This document shows positions 3,009 through 10,065 of a DNA stretch of 10,629 nucleotides, piece after piece. Origin of the DNA: a virus (Duplodnaviria; Heunggongvirae; Uroviricota; Caudoviricetes); the IMG/VR virus record IMGVR_UViG_2531839127_000027; one strand, given 5' to 3'. Position 1 is the stretch's first letter, and each line of letters opens with the position of its first letter. Position numbers and translations under genes: made by a program. The notes below the pieces were generated by a model that did no database searches, was not told the origin of the DNA, and saw nothing but the letters and a program-made list of their open reading frames with translations.

Positions 3009-4753
3009 AACTGGCACCGAACGTAAAAAAACAACCACGCGGAATAAAGCACAAAGAAACAGAGGTAATTATTTTCGCGGGTAGTGATGCGTGGGCACAT
3101 GCAAAACAGTGGCAGGAACAGGACGGCCCCGCATCCGGCGATAATGTGCCGCCTGTGTGGCTTGGGCCAAATCAGCTTGCTGAACTTGATGCGCTGAAAA
3201 TTGTTCCGGATGGAAAAAAACGCGTAAGGCTGTACCAGGCCGGAGAACTGGATTTAGTGGAGATCAAAAAGATTGGTCAGAAGCTGGCGGCGGCAGGCGT
3301 ACAGGACGCAAATTTTTACCCCGAAGGAATGCACCACCACGAGCGGCAGAACTGGCGGCGCTATCTGAGTGCTGAGTGTGAAAATATTGCCGCAGGGCTT
3401 ACCATGCCGGAACAGAAAAAAGCACAACTTTCACAGATGGCAGACAGTGAACGGGCACAGCTTCTTGCTTCCCGCTTTGATGGTGTCTGCGTCCATGCCG
3501 AAAGTGAAATCGTTCACGTATGGCGCGGCGGGGTATGGTGTCCGGTCAGCACAATGGAACTTAGCCGCGAAATGGTGGCGATCTATTCAGAGCACAGGGC
3601 CACTTTCAGCAAGCGCGTAATCAATAACGCCGTGGAAGCGTTAAAAGTTATTGCCGAACCAATGGGCGAGCCGTCCGGCGATTTGCTGCCGTTCGCCAAT
3701 GGTGCGCTTGACCTGAAAACGGGGGAATTTTCCCCGCACACGCCGGAGAACTGGATCACCACGCACAACGGCATTGAGTACACGCTACCAGCACCAGGGG
3801 AAAACATCCGCGATAACGCGCCAAACTTTCATAAATGGCTTGAGCACGCAGCCGGAAAAGACCCGCGCAAGATGATGCGTATATGTGCCGCGCTGTACAT
3901 GATTATGGCGAACCGGTACGACTGGCAGATGTTTATTGAGGCCACCGGAGACGGCGGTAGCGGTAAAAGTACATTCACACACATAGCCAGCCTTCTGGCA
4001 GGGAAACAGAACACGGTAAGCGCTGAAATGACATCGCTTGATGATGCTGGTGGACGTGCGCAGGTTGTCGGGAGTCGTCTTATCGTCCTGGCTGACCAGC
4101 CGAAATATACAGGCGAAGGAACGGGCATCAAGAAAATCACAGGCGGCGACCCCGTGGAAATTAACCCGAAATATGAAAAGCGTTTCACGGCGGTAATCAG
4201 GGCGGTGGTGCTGGCGACCAACAACAACCCGATGATATTCACCGAACGGGCCGGAGGGGTGGCACGTCGTCGCGTGATTTTCCGTTTCGACAATATCGTC
4301 AGTGAGGCCGAAAAAGACAGGGAGCTACCGGAAAAGATTGCGGCTGAAATCCCCGTTATTATCCGCCGATTGCTGGCGAACTTTACCGACCCTGAGAAGG
4401 CACGGGCTTTACTACTGGAACAGCGTGACGGTGATGAAGCACTGGCGATAAAGCAGCAAACGGATCCAGTTATTGAGTTTTGCCAGTTCCTGAATTTTCT
4501 GGAGGAAGCGCGTGGCCTGATGATGGGCGGCGGTGGTGATTCCGTGAAGTACACAACCAGGAACAGCCTTTACCGTGTCTATCTGGCGTTTATGGCTTAC
4601 GCAGGCAGGACCAAACCGCTGAACGTAAATGACTTTGGCAAGGCTATGAAGCCCGCCGCGAAAGTTTACGGACATGAATATATTACGCGAAAAGTTAAGG
4701 GGGTAACGCAGACTAACGCAATAACAACAGACGATTGCGAAGCGTTTTTATAA
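3005..4753 (+). CDS. Replication protein: SF3/D5-type NTPase primase-helicase (P4 alpha-like C-terminal region), 582 aa
   Basis: Walker A GDGGSGKST (encoded near 3949-3975), a hydrophobic strand ending in aspartate (LIVLAD) that could be a Walker B, and a later VVLATNNNP stretch. GGGGG RBS before ATG 3005. Followed by an iteron cluster. Confidence 0.85.
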   Translation: MKLAPNVKKQPRGIKHKETEVIIFAGSDAWAHAKQWQEQDGPASGDNVPPVWLGPNQLAELDALKIVPDGKKRVRLYQAGELDLVEIKKIGQKLAAAGVQDANFYPEGMHHHERQNWRRYLSAECENIAAGLTMPEQKKAQLSQMADSERAQLLASRFDGVCVHAESEIVHVWRGGVWCPVSTMELSREMVAIYSEHRATFSKRVINNAVEALKVIAEPMGEPSGDLLPFANGALDLKTGEFSPHTPENWITTHNGIEYTLPAPGENIRDNAPNFHKWLEHAAGKDPRKMMRICAALYMIMANRYDWQMFIEATGDGGSGKSTFTHIASLLAGKQNTVSAEMTSLDDAGGRAQVVGSRLIVLADQPKYTGEGTGIKKITGGDPVEINPKYEKRFTAVIRAVVLATNNNPMIFTERAGGVARRRVIFRFDNIVSEAEKDRELPEKIAAEIPVIIRRLLANFTDPEKARALLLEQRDGDEALAIKQQTDPVIEFCQFLNFLEEARGLMMGGGGDSVKYTTRNSLYRVYLAFMAYAGRTKPLNVNDFGKAMKPAAKVYGHEYITRKVKGVTQTNAITTDDCEAFL

Positions 4754-4766
4754 TTTTTTGCAATGG

Positions 4767-4994
4767 CTGTCTACCCTGTCTACCTGGGTAAAGGAAAATA
4801 CATTTAATTCAGTATATTAACTTAGGTAGACAGCCTTTTTTCACTATCTACCTACTATCTACCCTCTCTACCTGATTTTACCTGAATCAGACAGGGAGGT
4901 AGATACGGGGTAGATAGTGGATAAAAGCACTCTACCCCGATGAAAGCCGCGCCATTACTGGCATTGGGGCCAGCAAGGTAGATAAGGTAGACAA
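4767..4994. repeat. Iteron cluster, candidate origin of replication: 11 copies of TCTACC / GGTAGA in both orientations around an AT-rich core (4791-4823)
   Basis: Read directly: TCTACC at 4770, 4779, 4847, 4857, 4867, 4931; GGTAGA at 4825, 4898, 4909, 4977, 4987. Immediately downstream of the primase-helicase gene. Confidence 0.55.
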
Positions 4995-5042
4995 GGGGAG
5001 GTACAACTCAAAACTTTTTAAACGAGGGGGGTAAAAATAAAA

Positions 5043-5734: not shown

Positions 5735-5757
5735 AGCCGGAACAATCCGGCTTTTTT
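5735..5757 (+). terminator. Rho-independent terminator after ssb
   Basis: Stem AGCCGG (5735-5740) / CCGGCT (5747-5752), loop AACAAT, then a T6 run (5752-5757). Confidence 0.6.
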
Positions 5758-5832
5758 ACGGGTCCTCCCGATGGAGTGGCCTTGCCACGGGGCGGGAGCG
5801 GCGCGGAAAAAGGCTGGTTTTTGCATTTTCAT
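5752..5832 (+). repeat. Copy 1 of an 81-bp duplicated segment (77/81 identical to 8288-8368), starting at the terminator T-tract
   Basis: Read directly; contains ACGGGGCGGGAGCGGCGCGG, which resembles the lambda cos-junction sequence ACGGGGCGGCGACCTCGCGG as recalled. Confidence 0.7.
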
Positions 5833-6143: not shown

Positions 6144-6353
6144 GTGAATTGTATTAACGACCTGAACACAGGCGAGGTAAAAGGTGGTTCCGTTCATCTG
6201 GATGCGCAGACCGTTATGCGCCTTAAGCAGTACAGGATCGACCACATAAATCATCATCCTGACCAACCATTACCAGGTGTGGCGCAGATTGTCAGACACG
6301 CAGTTAACGCGTGGCTTGATAAGAATGGTTTTGCATCTGGGGGTGAGCAATGA
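6144..6353 (+). CDS. Small protein (69 aa, GTG start), possibly ribbon-helix-helix-like; first gene of the capsid operon
   Basis: GTG 6144 preceded by AAGAGGA with 7-nt spacing. Stop overlaps the capsid gene start (ATGA at 6350-6353). Pattern SVHLDAQTVMRLKQY...AQIVRHAVNAWL is strand-helix-helix-like. Confidence 0.5.
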   Translation: MNCINDLNTGEVKGGSVHLDAQTVMRLKQYRIDHINHHPDQPLPGVAQIVRHAVNAWLDKNGFASGGEQ

Positions 6354-8263
6354 ATCACTGGTACACCATTAAGGCGGCGGGTGTTCGCGGAGCGGCAGAA
6401 ATATCCATCTATGAAGAAATTGGCGGCTTCGGTATCACCGCGAAGCAGTTTGCGGAAGACCTGAAAGCCCTGGGCGATGTCTCACATATCGACCTGCGGA
6501 TCCATTCGCCAGGTGGTGACGTGTTTGAAGGCATCGCCATCTATAACCTGTTACGGAATCATCCGGCAGAAATTACGGTTTATATCGATGGTGTTGCGGC
6601 TTCAATGGCTTCGGTTGTCGCAATGGCTGGCGATCGTGTTGTGATGCCGGAAAACGCCATGATGATGATACATAAGCCGTGGGGTATCTCTGGCGGAAAT
6701 GCTGGTGATATGCGTGATTATGCTGATTTGCTGGATAAGGTGGAAACCGTGTTAGTCCCTGCTTATGCCAGAAAAACGGGCAAATCAGCACAGGAAATTA
6801 CCGCCATGCTGGAAGATGAAACCTGGATGGACGGGAAAGAATGCCTTAAGCACGGTTTTGCTGATGAATTGTTGCCATCTGTCACAGCAATGGCGCGAAT
6901 TGAATCGAAACGCACAGGAGATTTTTCACACATGCCGGAAACCATTAAAGGAATGATTACCCCGCCACAGGGAGCAGCCAATATTGCTGGTAATGAACAG
7001 AAGCGCATCAACGGAATAAGTGAAGTGTTTAGCCTGTTCGGCAGTCGTTACGACGGGATCAAAATGGCGTGCCTGGAAGATGCATCATGTACACCGGAGA
7101 TGGCCCGTGAAAAGTTGTTGAACGAGATGGGGCGCGAGTCCACGCCATCCAATAAAAATACCCCGGCTCATATTTATGCCGGTAACGGGAACATAACAGG
7201 CGATGCAATTCGTCAGGGGCTTTATTCCCGTCTCGGGTATGAACGCCCAGAGCGGGGAAATCCTTACGCGATGATGAGCCTTTTTGAAATGGCCCAGGCA
7301 TCACTAACGGATCGTGGTATCAGTGTTGGCGGTTTTTTAAATCGCTCGCAGGTCGTTAATGCAGCTTTCACACACAGCAGCAGCGATTTTTCTCACATTC
7401 TGGCTGGTGGTGCTGAAAAATCAGTACTGAAAGGCTGGCAGGACAGCGGCGAAACGTTCCAGAAATGGACGCGTACCGGATCGCTTTCAAACTTTCATGA
7501 AGCAAAGCGCGTTGGTCTGAATGGTTTTTCAAAGCTGGATAAAGTACCGGAAGGTGCGGAATATAAATACATCACCACCAGCGATAAAGGTGTACCTATT
7601 GCGCTGGCCACATACGGTAATATTTTTTCTGTTACCCGTCAGGCCATTATCAACGATGACCTGACCCAGTTAACTACAATCCCCATGGCGATGGGGCGTG
7701 CGGCCGCCAGAACAGTAGGTAATCTGGTTTATCTTCTGTTAACCAGCAACGGCAAATTTACGGATAGTAAAGCGTTATTCCATGCCGATCATAAAAATCT
7801 TATTGCGAAGGATATGGACATGGAGGGGCTTAACGAAGCCCGTAAGCTGATGCGACTACAGGAGGATGCCAACGGCGACTCCCTGAATATTACCCCCGCA
7901 TTTGTCCTGGCCCCCGCCGCGCTGGAGTCTGCCGCACATCGCGCCATTCTGTCATCGTCATCACTCTTTCCGGTTGATGGTGATGGCACTATCAATCAGA
8001 ACCCCGGTATCATTAACGTGGTGAAAGATATGGCTGAGGTTATTGTTGAGCCACGTCTTGATAAGAACAATAACAAGGAGTGGTATGTAGCCGCAGCGAA
8101 AGGGATGGACACGATAGAGGTCGCTTATCTTGATGGTATTGATACGCCATATCTTGAGGAGCAGGTGGGCTTTACTGTTGATGGTGTCGCCTGGAAGGTG
8201 CGCATAGATGCAGGTGTCGCGGCCCTCGATTATCGTGGACTACTGAAATCGAACGGAGCATGA
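6350..8263 (+). CDS. Fusion polyprotein: N-terminal ClpP-like (S14-type) prohead protease domain, linker/scaffold-like region, C-terminal HK97-fold major capsid protein; 637 aa
   Basis: N-terminal region carries ClpP catalytic-site motifs GVAASMAS (ClpP GQAASMG) and MIHKP (ClpP MIHQP). C-terminal about 330 aa has capsid-like features (FSVTRQAIINDD, TIEVAYLDG, GLLKS). GGGGTGAG RBS. Confidence 0.85.
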   Translation: MNHWYTIKAAGVRGAAEISIYEEIGGFGITAKQFAEDLKALGDVSHIDLRIHSPGGDVFEGIAIYNLLRNHPAEITVYIDGVAASMASVVAMAGDRVVMPENAMMMIHKPWGISGGNAGDMRDYADLLDKVETVLVPAYARKTGKSAQEITAMLEDETWMDGKECLKHGFADELLPSVTAMARIESKRTGDFSHMPETIKGMITPPQGAANIAGNEQKRINGISEVFSLFGSRYDGIKMACLEDASCTPEMAREKLLNEMGRESTPSNKNTPAHIYAGNGNITGDAIRQGLYSRLGYERPERGNPYAMMSLFEMAQASLTDRGISVGGFLNRSQVVNAAFTHSSSDFSHILAGGAEKSVLKGWQDSGETFQKWTRTGSLSNFHEAKRVGLNGFSKLDKVPEGAEYKYITTSDKGVPIALATYGNIFSVTRQAIINDDLTQLTTIPMAMGRAAARTVGNLVYLLLTSNGKFTDSKALFHADHKNLIAKDMDMEGLNEARKLMRLQEDANGDSLNITPAFVLAPAALESAAHRAILSSSSLFPVDGDGTINQNPGIINVVKDMAEVIVEPRLDKNNNKEWYVAAAKGMDTIEVAYLDGIDTPYLEEQVGFTVDGVAWKVRIDAGVAALDYRGLLKSNGA

Positions 8264-8269
8264 CAACAA

Positions 8270-8293
8270 GGGCGGCGACAGCCGCCTTTTTTT
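8270..8293 (+). terminator. Hairpin plus T7 tract after the capsid gene; stem sequence matches lambda cosN as recalled
   Basis: GGGCGGCGAC at 8270-8279 matches the first 10 nt of the lambda cosN overhang GGGCGGCGACCT (from memory). Stem GGCGGC (8271-8276) / GCCGCC (8281-8286), loop GACA, T7 at 8287-8293. Confidence 0.5.
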
Positions 8294-8368
8294 ACGGGTC
8301 CTCCCGGTGTGGTGTCCTTGCCACGGGGCGGGAGCGGCGCGGAAAAAGGCTGGTTTTTGCATTTTCAT
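8288..8368 (+). repeat. Copy 2 of the 81-bp duplicated segment (see 5752-5832)
   Basis: 77/81 identity; all four mismatches fall in one 9-mer (ATGGAGTGG vs GTGTGGTGT). Confidence 0.7.
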
Positions 8369-8521
8369 TCGTCATCATCATCTTTCTATCATATTGAATA
8401 TTAAGTGTTTTTATTTTTGGTATGTTAATTTCGCTTATTTTGTGTTCAACATACAGCGCGTTTTTTGACCTTTTTTGAAAGATATTTGCAAGATGCATGT
8501 TTAAAACATTCTGGAGCGGGT

Positions 8522-9007
8522 ATGGATCGGGAACTGAAAAATCTGATGCTGAACATTAACCAGCTGGCGGCGATAGCGGGAATATGTCGCCAGACTGCGG
8601 CGGCAAGGCTGAAAAATATCCAGCCAGCCGGAGGACATGACAAGCTGAAACTCTATCGGGTGACTGACATTCTGACCTGTTTTCTTGATCTTCCCGTTCC
8701 GGCATCACTGGAAGAAATGGAGCCACACGACCGTAAGGCCTGGTATCAGTCCGAACGTGAGCGCCTCAAGTTCGAACAGGAAACGGCGCAACTCATACCC
8801 GCCGATGATGTGCGAAAAGAGATGGCTATATGGGGAGAAATCGTAAGCGAGGAACTGGAAAAACTCCCCAGTATTCTGGCACGTGATGCTGGGCTTAAAC
8901 CGATGGCAGTAAACAGAGTGCAGTCAATTATTGACGATTTGTGTAATCAGATTATCAGCCGGATGGTGAAAAATGACGTAGTGAATGAGGTCGCAAAACA
9001 GGCATGA
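8522..9007 (+). CDS. Nu1-like terminase small subunit homolog (161 aa); candidate packaging-specificity or packaging-redirecting protein
   Basis: ATG 8522 preceded by GGAG with 5-nt spacing. N-terminus LNINQLAAIAGICRQTAAARLKN resembles the lambda Nu1 HTH region (KKQLADIFGASIRTIQNWQ) as recalled. Sits directly downstream of the cos-like region. The listed ORF starts at a TTG at 8465 without an RBS. Confidence 0.7.
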   Translation: MDRELKNLMLNINQLAAIAGICRQTAAARLKNIQPAGGHDKLKLYRVTDILTCFLDLPVPASLEEMEPHDRKAWYQSERERLKFEQETAQLIPADDVRKEMAIWGEIVSEELEKLPSILARDAGLKPMAVNRVQSIIDDLCNQIISRMVKNDVVNEVAKQA

Positions 9008-9291
9008 TAATGACCGAATCTGAAATACTGCGATTAATCCGCCGTGCTGGTGGAATCAGCCAGCTGGCTGACGAACATGCCAAGCAGCCGGATACAGTCA
9101 CCGCTGAAAATTACGCGCGTGTGGTGGCTGAGGTGATGCACCGTGACGGTATTGAGTTTAACGGCGTGGATATGCGCAATATACGCACCAGAGTTCTGGA
9201 GATGTTGTCATACCGTCGCCGCGTGCAGATGTACCAGGAGAAAGAAAAAATTACGTACCGGTGGAAGAAGCCGGAGCGGTTACGACGTTAA
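9004..9291 (+). CDS. Hypothetical protein (95 aa), translationally coupled to the terS-like gene
   Basis: ATG 9004 overlaps the terS stop (ATGA); alternative ATG at 9010. Hydrophilic, basic C-terminus. No family recognised. Confidence 0.45.
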   Translation: MIMTESEILRLIRRAGGISQLADEHAKQPDTVTAENYARVVAEVMHRDGIEFNGVDMRNIRTRVLEMLSYRRRVQMYQEKEKITYRWKKPERLRR

Positions 9292-9297
9292 CTTGTG

Positions 9298-9332
9298 GTG
9301 ACATACCGTGACGGAGAGTGACACACAGTGAC
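9298..9332. repeat. Four direct GTGAC repeats with exact 10-bp phasing; candidate recombinase/excisionase binding array near the right end
   Basis: Read directly: GTGAC at 9298, 9308, 9318, 9328, immediately after the last element ORF. Confidence 0.45.
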
Positions 9333-9823
9333 AAAAAAGACGGTATTTAAATCGGGTGGTGTTTAATACCCCCAGGGGGATAGAAATCCCTACACCTCAT
9401 TGCTTATGGGACCGCCCGCCTACCCTTGTTCACATCGCCGCAGGTTCGAAAACTTTTTTTGGGAAGGTGTGCACGGGATTGATAGATGAGGTCTATCTAT
9501 AAAAAATCACAAAATCCGCGCCATTGCTGGATCCGCCAAAAATCCCCCACCTTACGGCAGACAAAGAAAACGCGAATTATGGGCCTGTTGCAGAGAAAAA
9601 AGGTCTCACTAGTTTTGCGCACCCTAGCATCGAGGTTCGTCAGCCTCCCATCAGCAACCAGATAACTAATCTCGCTGGTGGGCATGATGCCGATATGGGG
9701 ACTTCCATAACGGTTTATCCGTGATCATCCACCAGCTTCATGGCGGATAGCCGGAAAATGATAACGGTATAGCCCGTCGCTTGTGTCTATTTGTTCCGCA
9801 TTGTTGCATACAGTGCACCGAAC

Positions 9824-9847
9824 GGTGTAGTTAATGGTGTAGTTAAT
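9824..9847. repeat. Perfect tandem duplication of the 12-mer GGTGTAGTTAAT in the region upstream of the Smr gene
   Basis: Read directly (9824-9835 and 9836-9847). Confidence 0.4.
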
Positions 9848-10065
9848 TTGCGATTTTTAACGTTATTTGCAGCGATATTTGTTGGTTAAATTCAATAAGT
9901 TATGCGCATTTAATTATAAATATCGTGAATGAATAATCATGCATAAGCATTTTGCTTAAAATATCGGCAATATTTGGAACTTATTACTGGAATTTTGGGT
10001 AATACGTTGTTGGACCGACCCGGTCTGGTTATCATATCGCGCTCTTAATTGCGGGAGGATGTAAC

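Follow-up and report, generated by a model that had tools for sequence, protein, structure and literature searches.

The known ways in which phage-inducible chromosomal islands (PICI) exploit their helpers target capsid size and terminase specificity. The arm-type sites of the lambda integrase contain GTCAC/GTGAC and can be tandem, and integrase arm-type sites typically lie within ~250 bp of the core. Proteins of the OmpR/PhoB type usually bind sites laid out as direct pentamers at 10-11 bp. Remote initiator-binding sites are found in the oriR of SPP1 (G38P) and in the crr region of P4. In the lambda record, four iterons are annotated inside gene O and are followed by an A-rich run. The sites for packaging proteins have been mapped in HK97, whose TerS binds from +15 to +29, downstream of the cut (PMC11331095), and in the island EcCICFT073, whose cos1 is placed directly upstream of rpp (PMC6739421).

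The present work concerns a window of 10,629 nucleotides, which is the whole stretch of DNA that was analysed (IMG/VR record IMGVR_UViG_2531839127_000027). Near its right end the window contains an array of phased GTGAC pentamers. The array is real, lies inside the element and is conserved and modular. It is undescribed in the published PICI work that was found and lies outside the published cos sites, and literature searches on GTGAC/GTCAC iterons found nothing relevant.

The island and its boundaries

The window represents an E. coli PICI, whose insertion site is the abgR-smrA interval. The right-end 1.1-kb segment compared has 99.9% identity to the abgR-smrA island of E. coli P27_L1_05.20. 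The element is assigned to the E. coli PICI/cf-PICI group (PMC6092414, PMC6739421, bioRxiv 10.1101/2022.09.08.507074), because an RppC homologue or a complete hnh-terS-terL module is present in relatives with the same last open reading frame (ORF). The window genes comprise alpA, a DUF4222 gene, a D5-type primase-helicase, SSB, a ClpP-protease/major-capsid fusion, a DUF1441 small-terminase-like gene and a final ORF of 93-95 aa. The tyrosine integrase gene sits immediately left of the window. The features needed to place the array are the following:

4767 to 4996, no strand assigned: probable satellite origin, directly 3' of the gene for the D5-type primase-helicase; its TCTACC/GGTAGA iterons form two inverted sets
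8465 to 9007, plus strand: DUF1441/small-terminase-like gene (Pfam PF07278; PHROG 141, terminase small subunit)
9004 to 9291, plus strand: last gene of the element, coding for an uncharacterised protein of 93-95 aa (PHROG 1561)
9919 to 9928, plus strand: attR core AATATCGTGA, the right boundary, from the empty K-12 abgR-smrA site compared with the occupied site

The layout of the 4767-4996 iterons agrees with that of the PICI origins described in PMC6092414. The RefSeq start of the DUF1441 gene is at ~8522. Its protein is ~70% identical to the product of the gene directly upstream of the PhiR40_1 large-terminase gene, and it has 63% identity to the mEp460 protein annotated as terminase small subunit. 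AlphaFold predicts the 93-aa protein to be helical, with low confidence (pLDDT 65), and neither this protein nor the DUF1441 protein has sequence relatives in the PDB.

The last ORF and the right end are common to the window island and to its EcCICFT073-type and cf-PICI-type relatives. The slot that holds the ClpP-protease/major-capsid fusion and the DUF1441 TerS-like gene in the window (6350-8263 and 8465-9007) is occupied by lambda-like capsid/decoration genes and Rpp in the EcCICFT073-type relatives, and by a whole head-and-terminase module in the cf-PICI-type ones. An ORF of 396 aa at 652-1842 could be mistaken for an integrase; it has no Pfam hit and its sequence looks out-of-frame. In its place, the RefSeq annotation gives a YlcI/YnfO gene on the minus strand at 1359-1664. 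Between the end of int and alpA, at 68-125, six phased 10-bp units of the consensus GAACAACGNN form a candidate AlpA or promoter-control array, which is probably the other kind of phased repeat mentioned in the earlier note. The tRNA and Rfam scans of the window gave no matches.

Alignment of the empty K-12 site to both junctions defines a 10-bp att core, AATATCGTGA, with attL at L001 3632. The host similarity begins at ~9910 in 5,000+ genomes. The earlier note had allowed for an element boundary upstream of 9298, with the array as host sequence. The mapped boundary is downstream of that position, so the array belongs to the element; measured to the attR core, it ends 587 bp inside.

The GTGAC array

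The array and the segment attached to it are placed as follows:

9298-9302, 9308-9312, 9318-9322 and 9328-9332, plus strand: four GTGAC units, start-to-start exactly 10 bp
9333 to 9353, plus strand: array tail, an A-run and then GACGGTATTTAAAT, which travels with the array

The spacers between the four units are ATACC, GGAGA and ACACA. Tandem Repeats Finder also recognises a repeat of period 10, at 9298-9333. Over the whole window, GTGAC shows no enrichment (14 matches, 15.2 expected). Three phased copies occurred in none of 200 dinucleotide-preserving shuffles, and the analytic chance expectation for four phased copies is ~4e-9. The description given in the earlier note, of four GTGAC repeats at exact 10-bp spacing just beyond the last element gene, is borne out by the coordinates and by these statistics, and the array begins 6 nt past the stop codon of the 9004-9291 ORF. 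A degenerate fifth unit, AAGAC, is found inside the tail at 9337-9341, at a spacing of 9 bp. Every array-bearing relative has A4-7 GACGGT(A)TTTAA immediately 3' of the last GTGAC, regardless of the downstream sequence. Such an array is most naturally read as a helically phased protein-binding array.

The array does not have the structure of a PICI origin, in which two inverted iteron sets surround an AT-rich centre beside the primase gene. It is a single direct set of a different motif, 4.5 kb away from the iterons at 4767-4996.

The array among the relatives of the island

The relatives were gathered using the 93-aa protein and provide 17 distinct array contexts. They hold 4 or 5 perfect GTGAC units, and on this comparison the array is a mobile module of ~50 bp. 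The ancestral array appears as five units with the spacers ATACC, GGAGA, AACCA and ACACA, followed by the A-run, and GTGAC is the sole part common to the units. Whole units of 10 bp have been lost: the window is without the AACCA unit, L172 without ACACA and the L269 group without ATACC.

The module is present in satellites of the DUF1441 type (the window), the Rpp type (L131, L132) and the hnh-terS-terL type (L162, L184). The 146-aa protein of L131 is an RppC homologue (E = 2e-33 against PDB 6hlk). The array-bearing elements occupy several integration sites, including one adjoining yejO and others inside prophage terminase genes. L184 (3992-5703) and L132 (2898-3863) are array-bearing satellites of this helper-embedded kind, within prophage large-terminase genes.

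Three arrangements of the module were found. The array may directly follow the ORF stop and be followed in turn, at +45, by an HK97-type cos. It may also follow the stop and precede a PICI-type origin, with the cos at +400 (L162). In L193, L220, L259, L269 and L272 the array lies 90-400 bp downstream, behind hairpin-containing repeats, and there is no HK97-type cos. In L139, L143, L188 and L208, the cos stands directly after the ORF stop and the array is missing. The origin in L162, a cf-PICI-like element, is typical of the PICI type (4520-4700; three copies of GCGGGTTAT, an AT-rich centre and three copies of ATAACCCGC) and is placed between the GTGAC array and the HK97-type cos.

The module was detected in 138 of the 5,426 complete E. 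coli genomes, and the scan of species-representative genomes gave one relative only, in Shigella. Among 12 array-bearing and 28 array-less loci, no satellite ORF cluster separates the two groups by presence or absence. The array is independent of the types of integrase, packaging genes and neighbouring genes. The binder is probably supplied in trans, since no satellite-encoded candidate was found; this is the economical reading. The 93-aa protein had been considered as the binder and was dropped: identical 93-aa proteins are found with and without the array, so the two do not co-vary, and the structural model is weak.

Cos-like sites of the island

Three cos-like sites were recognised in the window:

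5752 to 5832, plus strand: lambda-family cos copy, 81 bp, 95% identical to the copy at 8288-8368
8288 to 8368, plus strand: lambda-family cos copy, 81 bp, immediately upstream of the DUF1441 gene, with a cosQ-like ACGGGTCCT and a cosN-like GGGGCGGGAGCG
9369 to 9462, plus strand: HK97-family cos-like site, with CCCCCAGGGGGATAGAAATCCC, then GACCGCCCGCC (9410-9420), then the conserved block TCACATCGCCGCAGGTTCGAAAACTTTTTTTGG (9430-9462)

The HK97-family site aligns with the HNH-terS intergenic region of mEp235, PhiR49_2 and vB_EcoS-640R1, as well as with the joined ends of HK97. The alignment with the HK97 ends predicts a cut at ~9422/9423. The HK97-type cos of 640R1 has 81.6% identity over 75 nt to part of the satellite site, and one other phage is better, at 85.5%. 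Upstream of its DUF1441 terS, PhiR40_1 has a sequence nearly identical to the lambda-family cosQ/cosN core, with one mismatch and a 1-bp gap in ~70 nt. The 8288-8368 copy is placed relative to the DUF1441 gene as cos1 of EcCICFT073 is relative to rpp. A search of the window for the cosN of lambda itself, with mismatches, gave chance-level matches only.

One 11-kb satellite thus carries cos-like sites of two families, two copies of the lambda family (PhiR40_1/DUF1441-type) and one of the HK97 family (mEp235, vB_EcoS-640R1). This suggests packaging by helpers with different terminase systems.

Phased GTGAC/GTCAC arrays in phage initiator genes

An exact-pattern scan of IMG/VR for four or more phased GTGAC units matched at least 120 contigs, with GC contents of 0.34-0.73. 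Among the 120 matches listed, 84 arrays fall within an opposite-strand ORF and read there as GTCAC. Among the matches listed, 72 of these 84 ORFs are homologous to representatives with PHROG replication-initiation matches; seven of the eight representative ORFs match PHROG replication-initiation, O-like, DnaD-like-loader or primosomal families. Further arrays among those listed adjoin a truncated initiator, a replisome-organiser gene, a primase-helicase or a DnaB gene. Phased GTGAC arrays are therefore associated with phage initiator genes.

The arrays in the initiator genes have 4-6 copies at 10-11 bp. A period of 10 bp means that they cannot be codon repeats, and GTCAC imposes a VT / xH / S-x peptide pattern in the linker region of the initiator. 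The O genes of the E. coli phages vB_EcoS-640R1 and Evi contain two GTCAC arrays, of four and five units, the second being followed by an AT-rich run. The RefSeq name of this initiator is 'phage replisome organizer', and the array-bearing segment of it is present in 2,078 of the 5,426 complete E. coli genomes (38%). On the model of lambda, where ori is inside gene O, we infer that the GTCAC arrays in the initiator genes are origin iterons. By the same analogy with lambda O, the initiators would bind GTCAC/GTGAC.

PhiR40_1 and mEp235 have no GTCAC arrays and use other iteron types. Phased GTCAC is also found elsewhere: in high-GC HK97-like phages, 4-7 units at 10 bp, variable in copy number, occupy a gap of ~80 bp between the terL stop and the portal start. 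The contigs with such arrays are L012, L023, L044, L046, L080, L102, L106, L124 and L127.

What could bind the array

The earlier note had offered two roles for the array, arm-type recombination sites or a binding array for a packaging protein. For the recombination complex, a further pair of repeats has to be considered:

9824 to 9847, plus strand: two copies of GGTGTAGTTAAT, a better candidate for arm-type sites; the same tandem repeat is found near attL at L001 3770-3793, outside the window

The right-hand pair is ~70 bp away from the attR core; the left-hand one, ~130 bp away from the attL core, is just upstream of int. Slightly varied forms of the repeat are found at the right end in many relatives, with or without the GTGAC array. 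These are probably the arm-type sites of the integrase. The GTGAC units resemble the lambda-type arm sites P'1-P'3 as short direct repeats about one helical turn apart, and lie in the int-distal half of the element, where sites of the Xis type would be. On the other hand, they differ from P'1-P'3 in position, distribution and absence from attL. Their distance from the attR core is well outside the usual arm-site range, and the distance from array to end repeat varies from 319 to 625 bp among relatives. There is no GTGAC array near attL, whereas the GGTGTAGTTAAT pair adjoins both junctions. L004 has the same end repeats and no array, while the array occurs in elements at other integration sites, L131 having different terminal repeats, and does not track the integrase or att type. 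For AlpA, the GAACAACGNN units at 68-125 are the more probable target. It is consequently very hard to maintain that the array represents arm-type integrase or excisionase (AlpA) sites; position and distribution contradict this role, which the GGTGTAGTTAAT pair fits. The second proposal is that of a packaging accessory site, which would bind the DUF1441 protein, Rpp-TerS, an HK97-type TerS, HNH or another packaging protein and direct the terminase to cos. The array does lie between the packaging genes and the cos-like site of the HK97 type, at a distance of 90-125 bp from its predicted cut, and in 9 of the 17 distinct contexts the cos element begins ~45 bp past it. Moreover, PICI are known to use cosB sites unlike those of their helpers (PMC6739421), and the cosB of EcCICFT073 (Rpp-TerS) is likewise a satellite-specific cis site near packaging functions in the same element family. 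The published EcCICFT073 site, however, has one GTGAC, no phased array and a position directly upstream of rpp, whereas the GTGAC array stands elsewhere in the element, independently of Rpp. The array is upstream of the predicted cut, on the other side from the region bound by HK97 TerS. The phage cos similarity starts at ~9369 and leaves the array outside the shared segment; in 640R1 only ~20 bp separate the end of the HNH gene from the G-run, too little for such an array. L139, L143, L188 and L208 keep the same cos without it. Conversely, in about six contexts (e.g., L269) the array has no HK97-type cos, and in two the cos is 400 bp away. The nearest lambda-type cosN is ~960 bp from the array. 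The same array accompanies three unrelated packaging modules (DUF1441, Rpp and HK97-type terS-terL) and shows no co-variation with the type of TerS, Rpp or TerL. The evidence hence leans against a packaging-protein binding array, and we consider an accessory site of this kind rather improbable.

The array could also be an operator, or a similar array, for another winged-helix-type regulator of the host (OmpR/PhoB family), the helper or the satellite; it would influence either the local DNA architecture or transcription at the late operon's 3' end. The pentamer layout at 10-11 bp fits the OmpR/PhoB-type winged-helix proteins, whose tandem half-sites are similarly head-to-tail repeats of pentamers or hexamers at 10-11 bp, and the array is strictly co-oriented with the operon, often 6 nt past the last stop codon. 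It differs from those half-sites in being without an associated promoter and in a core that matches no known regulator; to our knowledge, GTGAC at 10 bp is not the site of any E. coli regulator. Nor does the array co-occur with any satellite protein. A sigma-70-like promoter or an intrinsic terminator is lacking at and adjoining the array, and the transcript structure is not significant (z = -1.5); the readings of the array as a promoter, a terminator or a structured RNA were rejected on these grounds. Taken together, a regulator of this class is an unlikely binder. The last alternative is that the array has no function and is a decamer repeat made by slippage, which hitch-hikes in a recombination-prone non-coding region. 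All the arrays descend from one ancestral module, and in the array variants, counted by eye, the independent substitutions are few and affect 1 of 25 core and 6 of 20 spacer positions, so that the signal of between-lineage constraint is modest. However, the spacers are fully diverged within the array while GTGAC and the 10-bp register are kept, the changes of copy number involve whole units, and the module persists in three or more satellite architectures and in the 138 complete genomes. A repeat without function is for these reasons quite improbable.

A helper initiator as the candidate binder

The best explanation, which we hold tentatively, is that the array binds an initiator-type protein of the helper, supplied in trans. 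The four or five GTGAC sites, one turn apart, would line up several copies of the protein on one face of the helix. The candidate is the 'replisome organiser', or O-like replication initiator, of lambdoid helper prophages. The satellite would capture the initiator of its helper by means of a portable cis-acting module. The outcome of this capture could be a start of replication driven by the helper, or the sensing or titration of the initiator. By analogy with the phage arrays, we infer both that the initiators bind the satellite array and the effect of that binding.

The satellite array matches the initiator iterons in the core pentamer, in the copy number (four, and five in relatives) and in the phasing of 10-11 bp. 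It shares with the iterons of initiator genes, such as the lambda ori in O and the GTCAC arrays of the 'replisome organiser'/DnaT-domain initiators, a short motif in helical phase. It has the same core pentamer and the same 10-11 bp spacing as the O-gene arrays of 640R1 and Evi and those of 72 other initiator genes. In addition, phage 640R1 pairs an initiator of the GTCAC type with an HK97-type cos resembling that of the satellite. A six-frame search of the satellite ORFs against the profile of the initiator N-terminal domain gave no match, so such a binder would act in trans.

The satellite copy differs from the phage origin iterons in several respects. It is neither inside nor beside an initiator gene, and beyond pentamer and spacing it has no sequence similarity to the phage arrays. 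Its polarity is inverted: in the phages the AT-rich run is 3' of the GTCAC strand, whereas in the satellite the A/T-rich tail is 3' of the GTGAC strand. The flank of the array is only moderately AT-rich (GC 0.42-0.50 in 40-bp windows), instead of a strongly AT-rich unwinding region, and a complete origin is consequently doubtful. Sensing or titration is more likely than a complete origin, because there is no clear AT-rich unwinding region and the polarity is opposite to that of the phage origins. A more specific proposal is that the satellite array would be a decoy or auxiliary copy of the origin repeats of the helper, with which the satellite could start its own replication, sense the lytic growth of the helper or starve the helper origin. 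This is possible and somewhat doubtful.

Other points count against a helper initiator as the binder. The 5-bp core carries little information, and other winged-helix proteins share pentamers at 10-11 bp. PhiR40_1, the closest in TerS, and mEp235, which matches the cos region, use other iterons. The array-less satellites carry no iterons of the other O types (lambda, PhiR40_1, mEp235), hence there is no general pattern of iteron capture. Some phased GTCAC arrays also stand in non-replication contexts, such as the terL-portal gap of the high-GC phages.

The nearest parallels in arrangement are the oriR of SPP1 and the crr region of P4, where an array of initiator sites is likewise remote from both the main origin and the gene of the initiator. 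Those systems use their own initiator and the motif of the main origin. Unlike them, the satellite has TCTACC/GGTAGA in its own origin, and the binder of GTGAC would be foreign.

If the helper initiator is indeed the binder, the piracy of these islands would extend to the start of helper DNA replication, in a mode aimed at the replication initiator of the helper instead of its capsid or terminase, and the array would give a hint at a determinant of helper range. Regardless of the binder, GTCAC at 10-11 bp in initiator genes is widespread, being seen at GC contents of 0.37-0.73, and could be used for the prediction of origins. In these islands the array likewise points to a right-end cassette of recombining cis sites, which includes cos variants, an extra origin and hairpin repeats.

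The hairpin repeats are tandem units of ~50 bp found in L005 (3290-3700), L220 (9697-10096) and L269 (10283-10395), in which TAACNNNTGAT(A/T)TT..GAAA is followed by a short hairpin. The hairpin stems vary by compensatory substitutions (GCGCAAAATTGCGC, CCTCAATTTGAGG, CCCCCATTGGGGG and others). The units are possibly a structured RNA or a captured binding site. One of them matches 35-54 nt within the roi/antirepressor genes of many lambdoid phages (HK620; L280 690-740).
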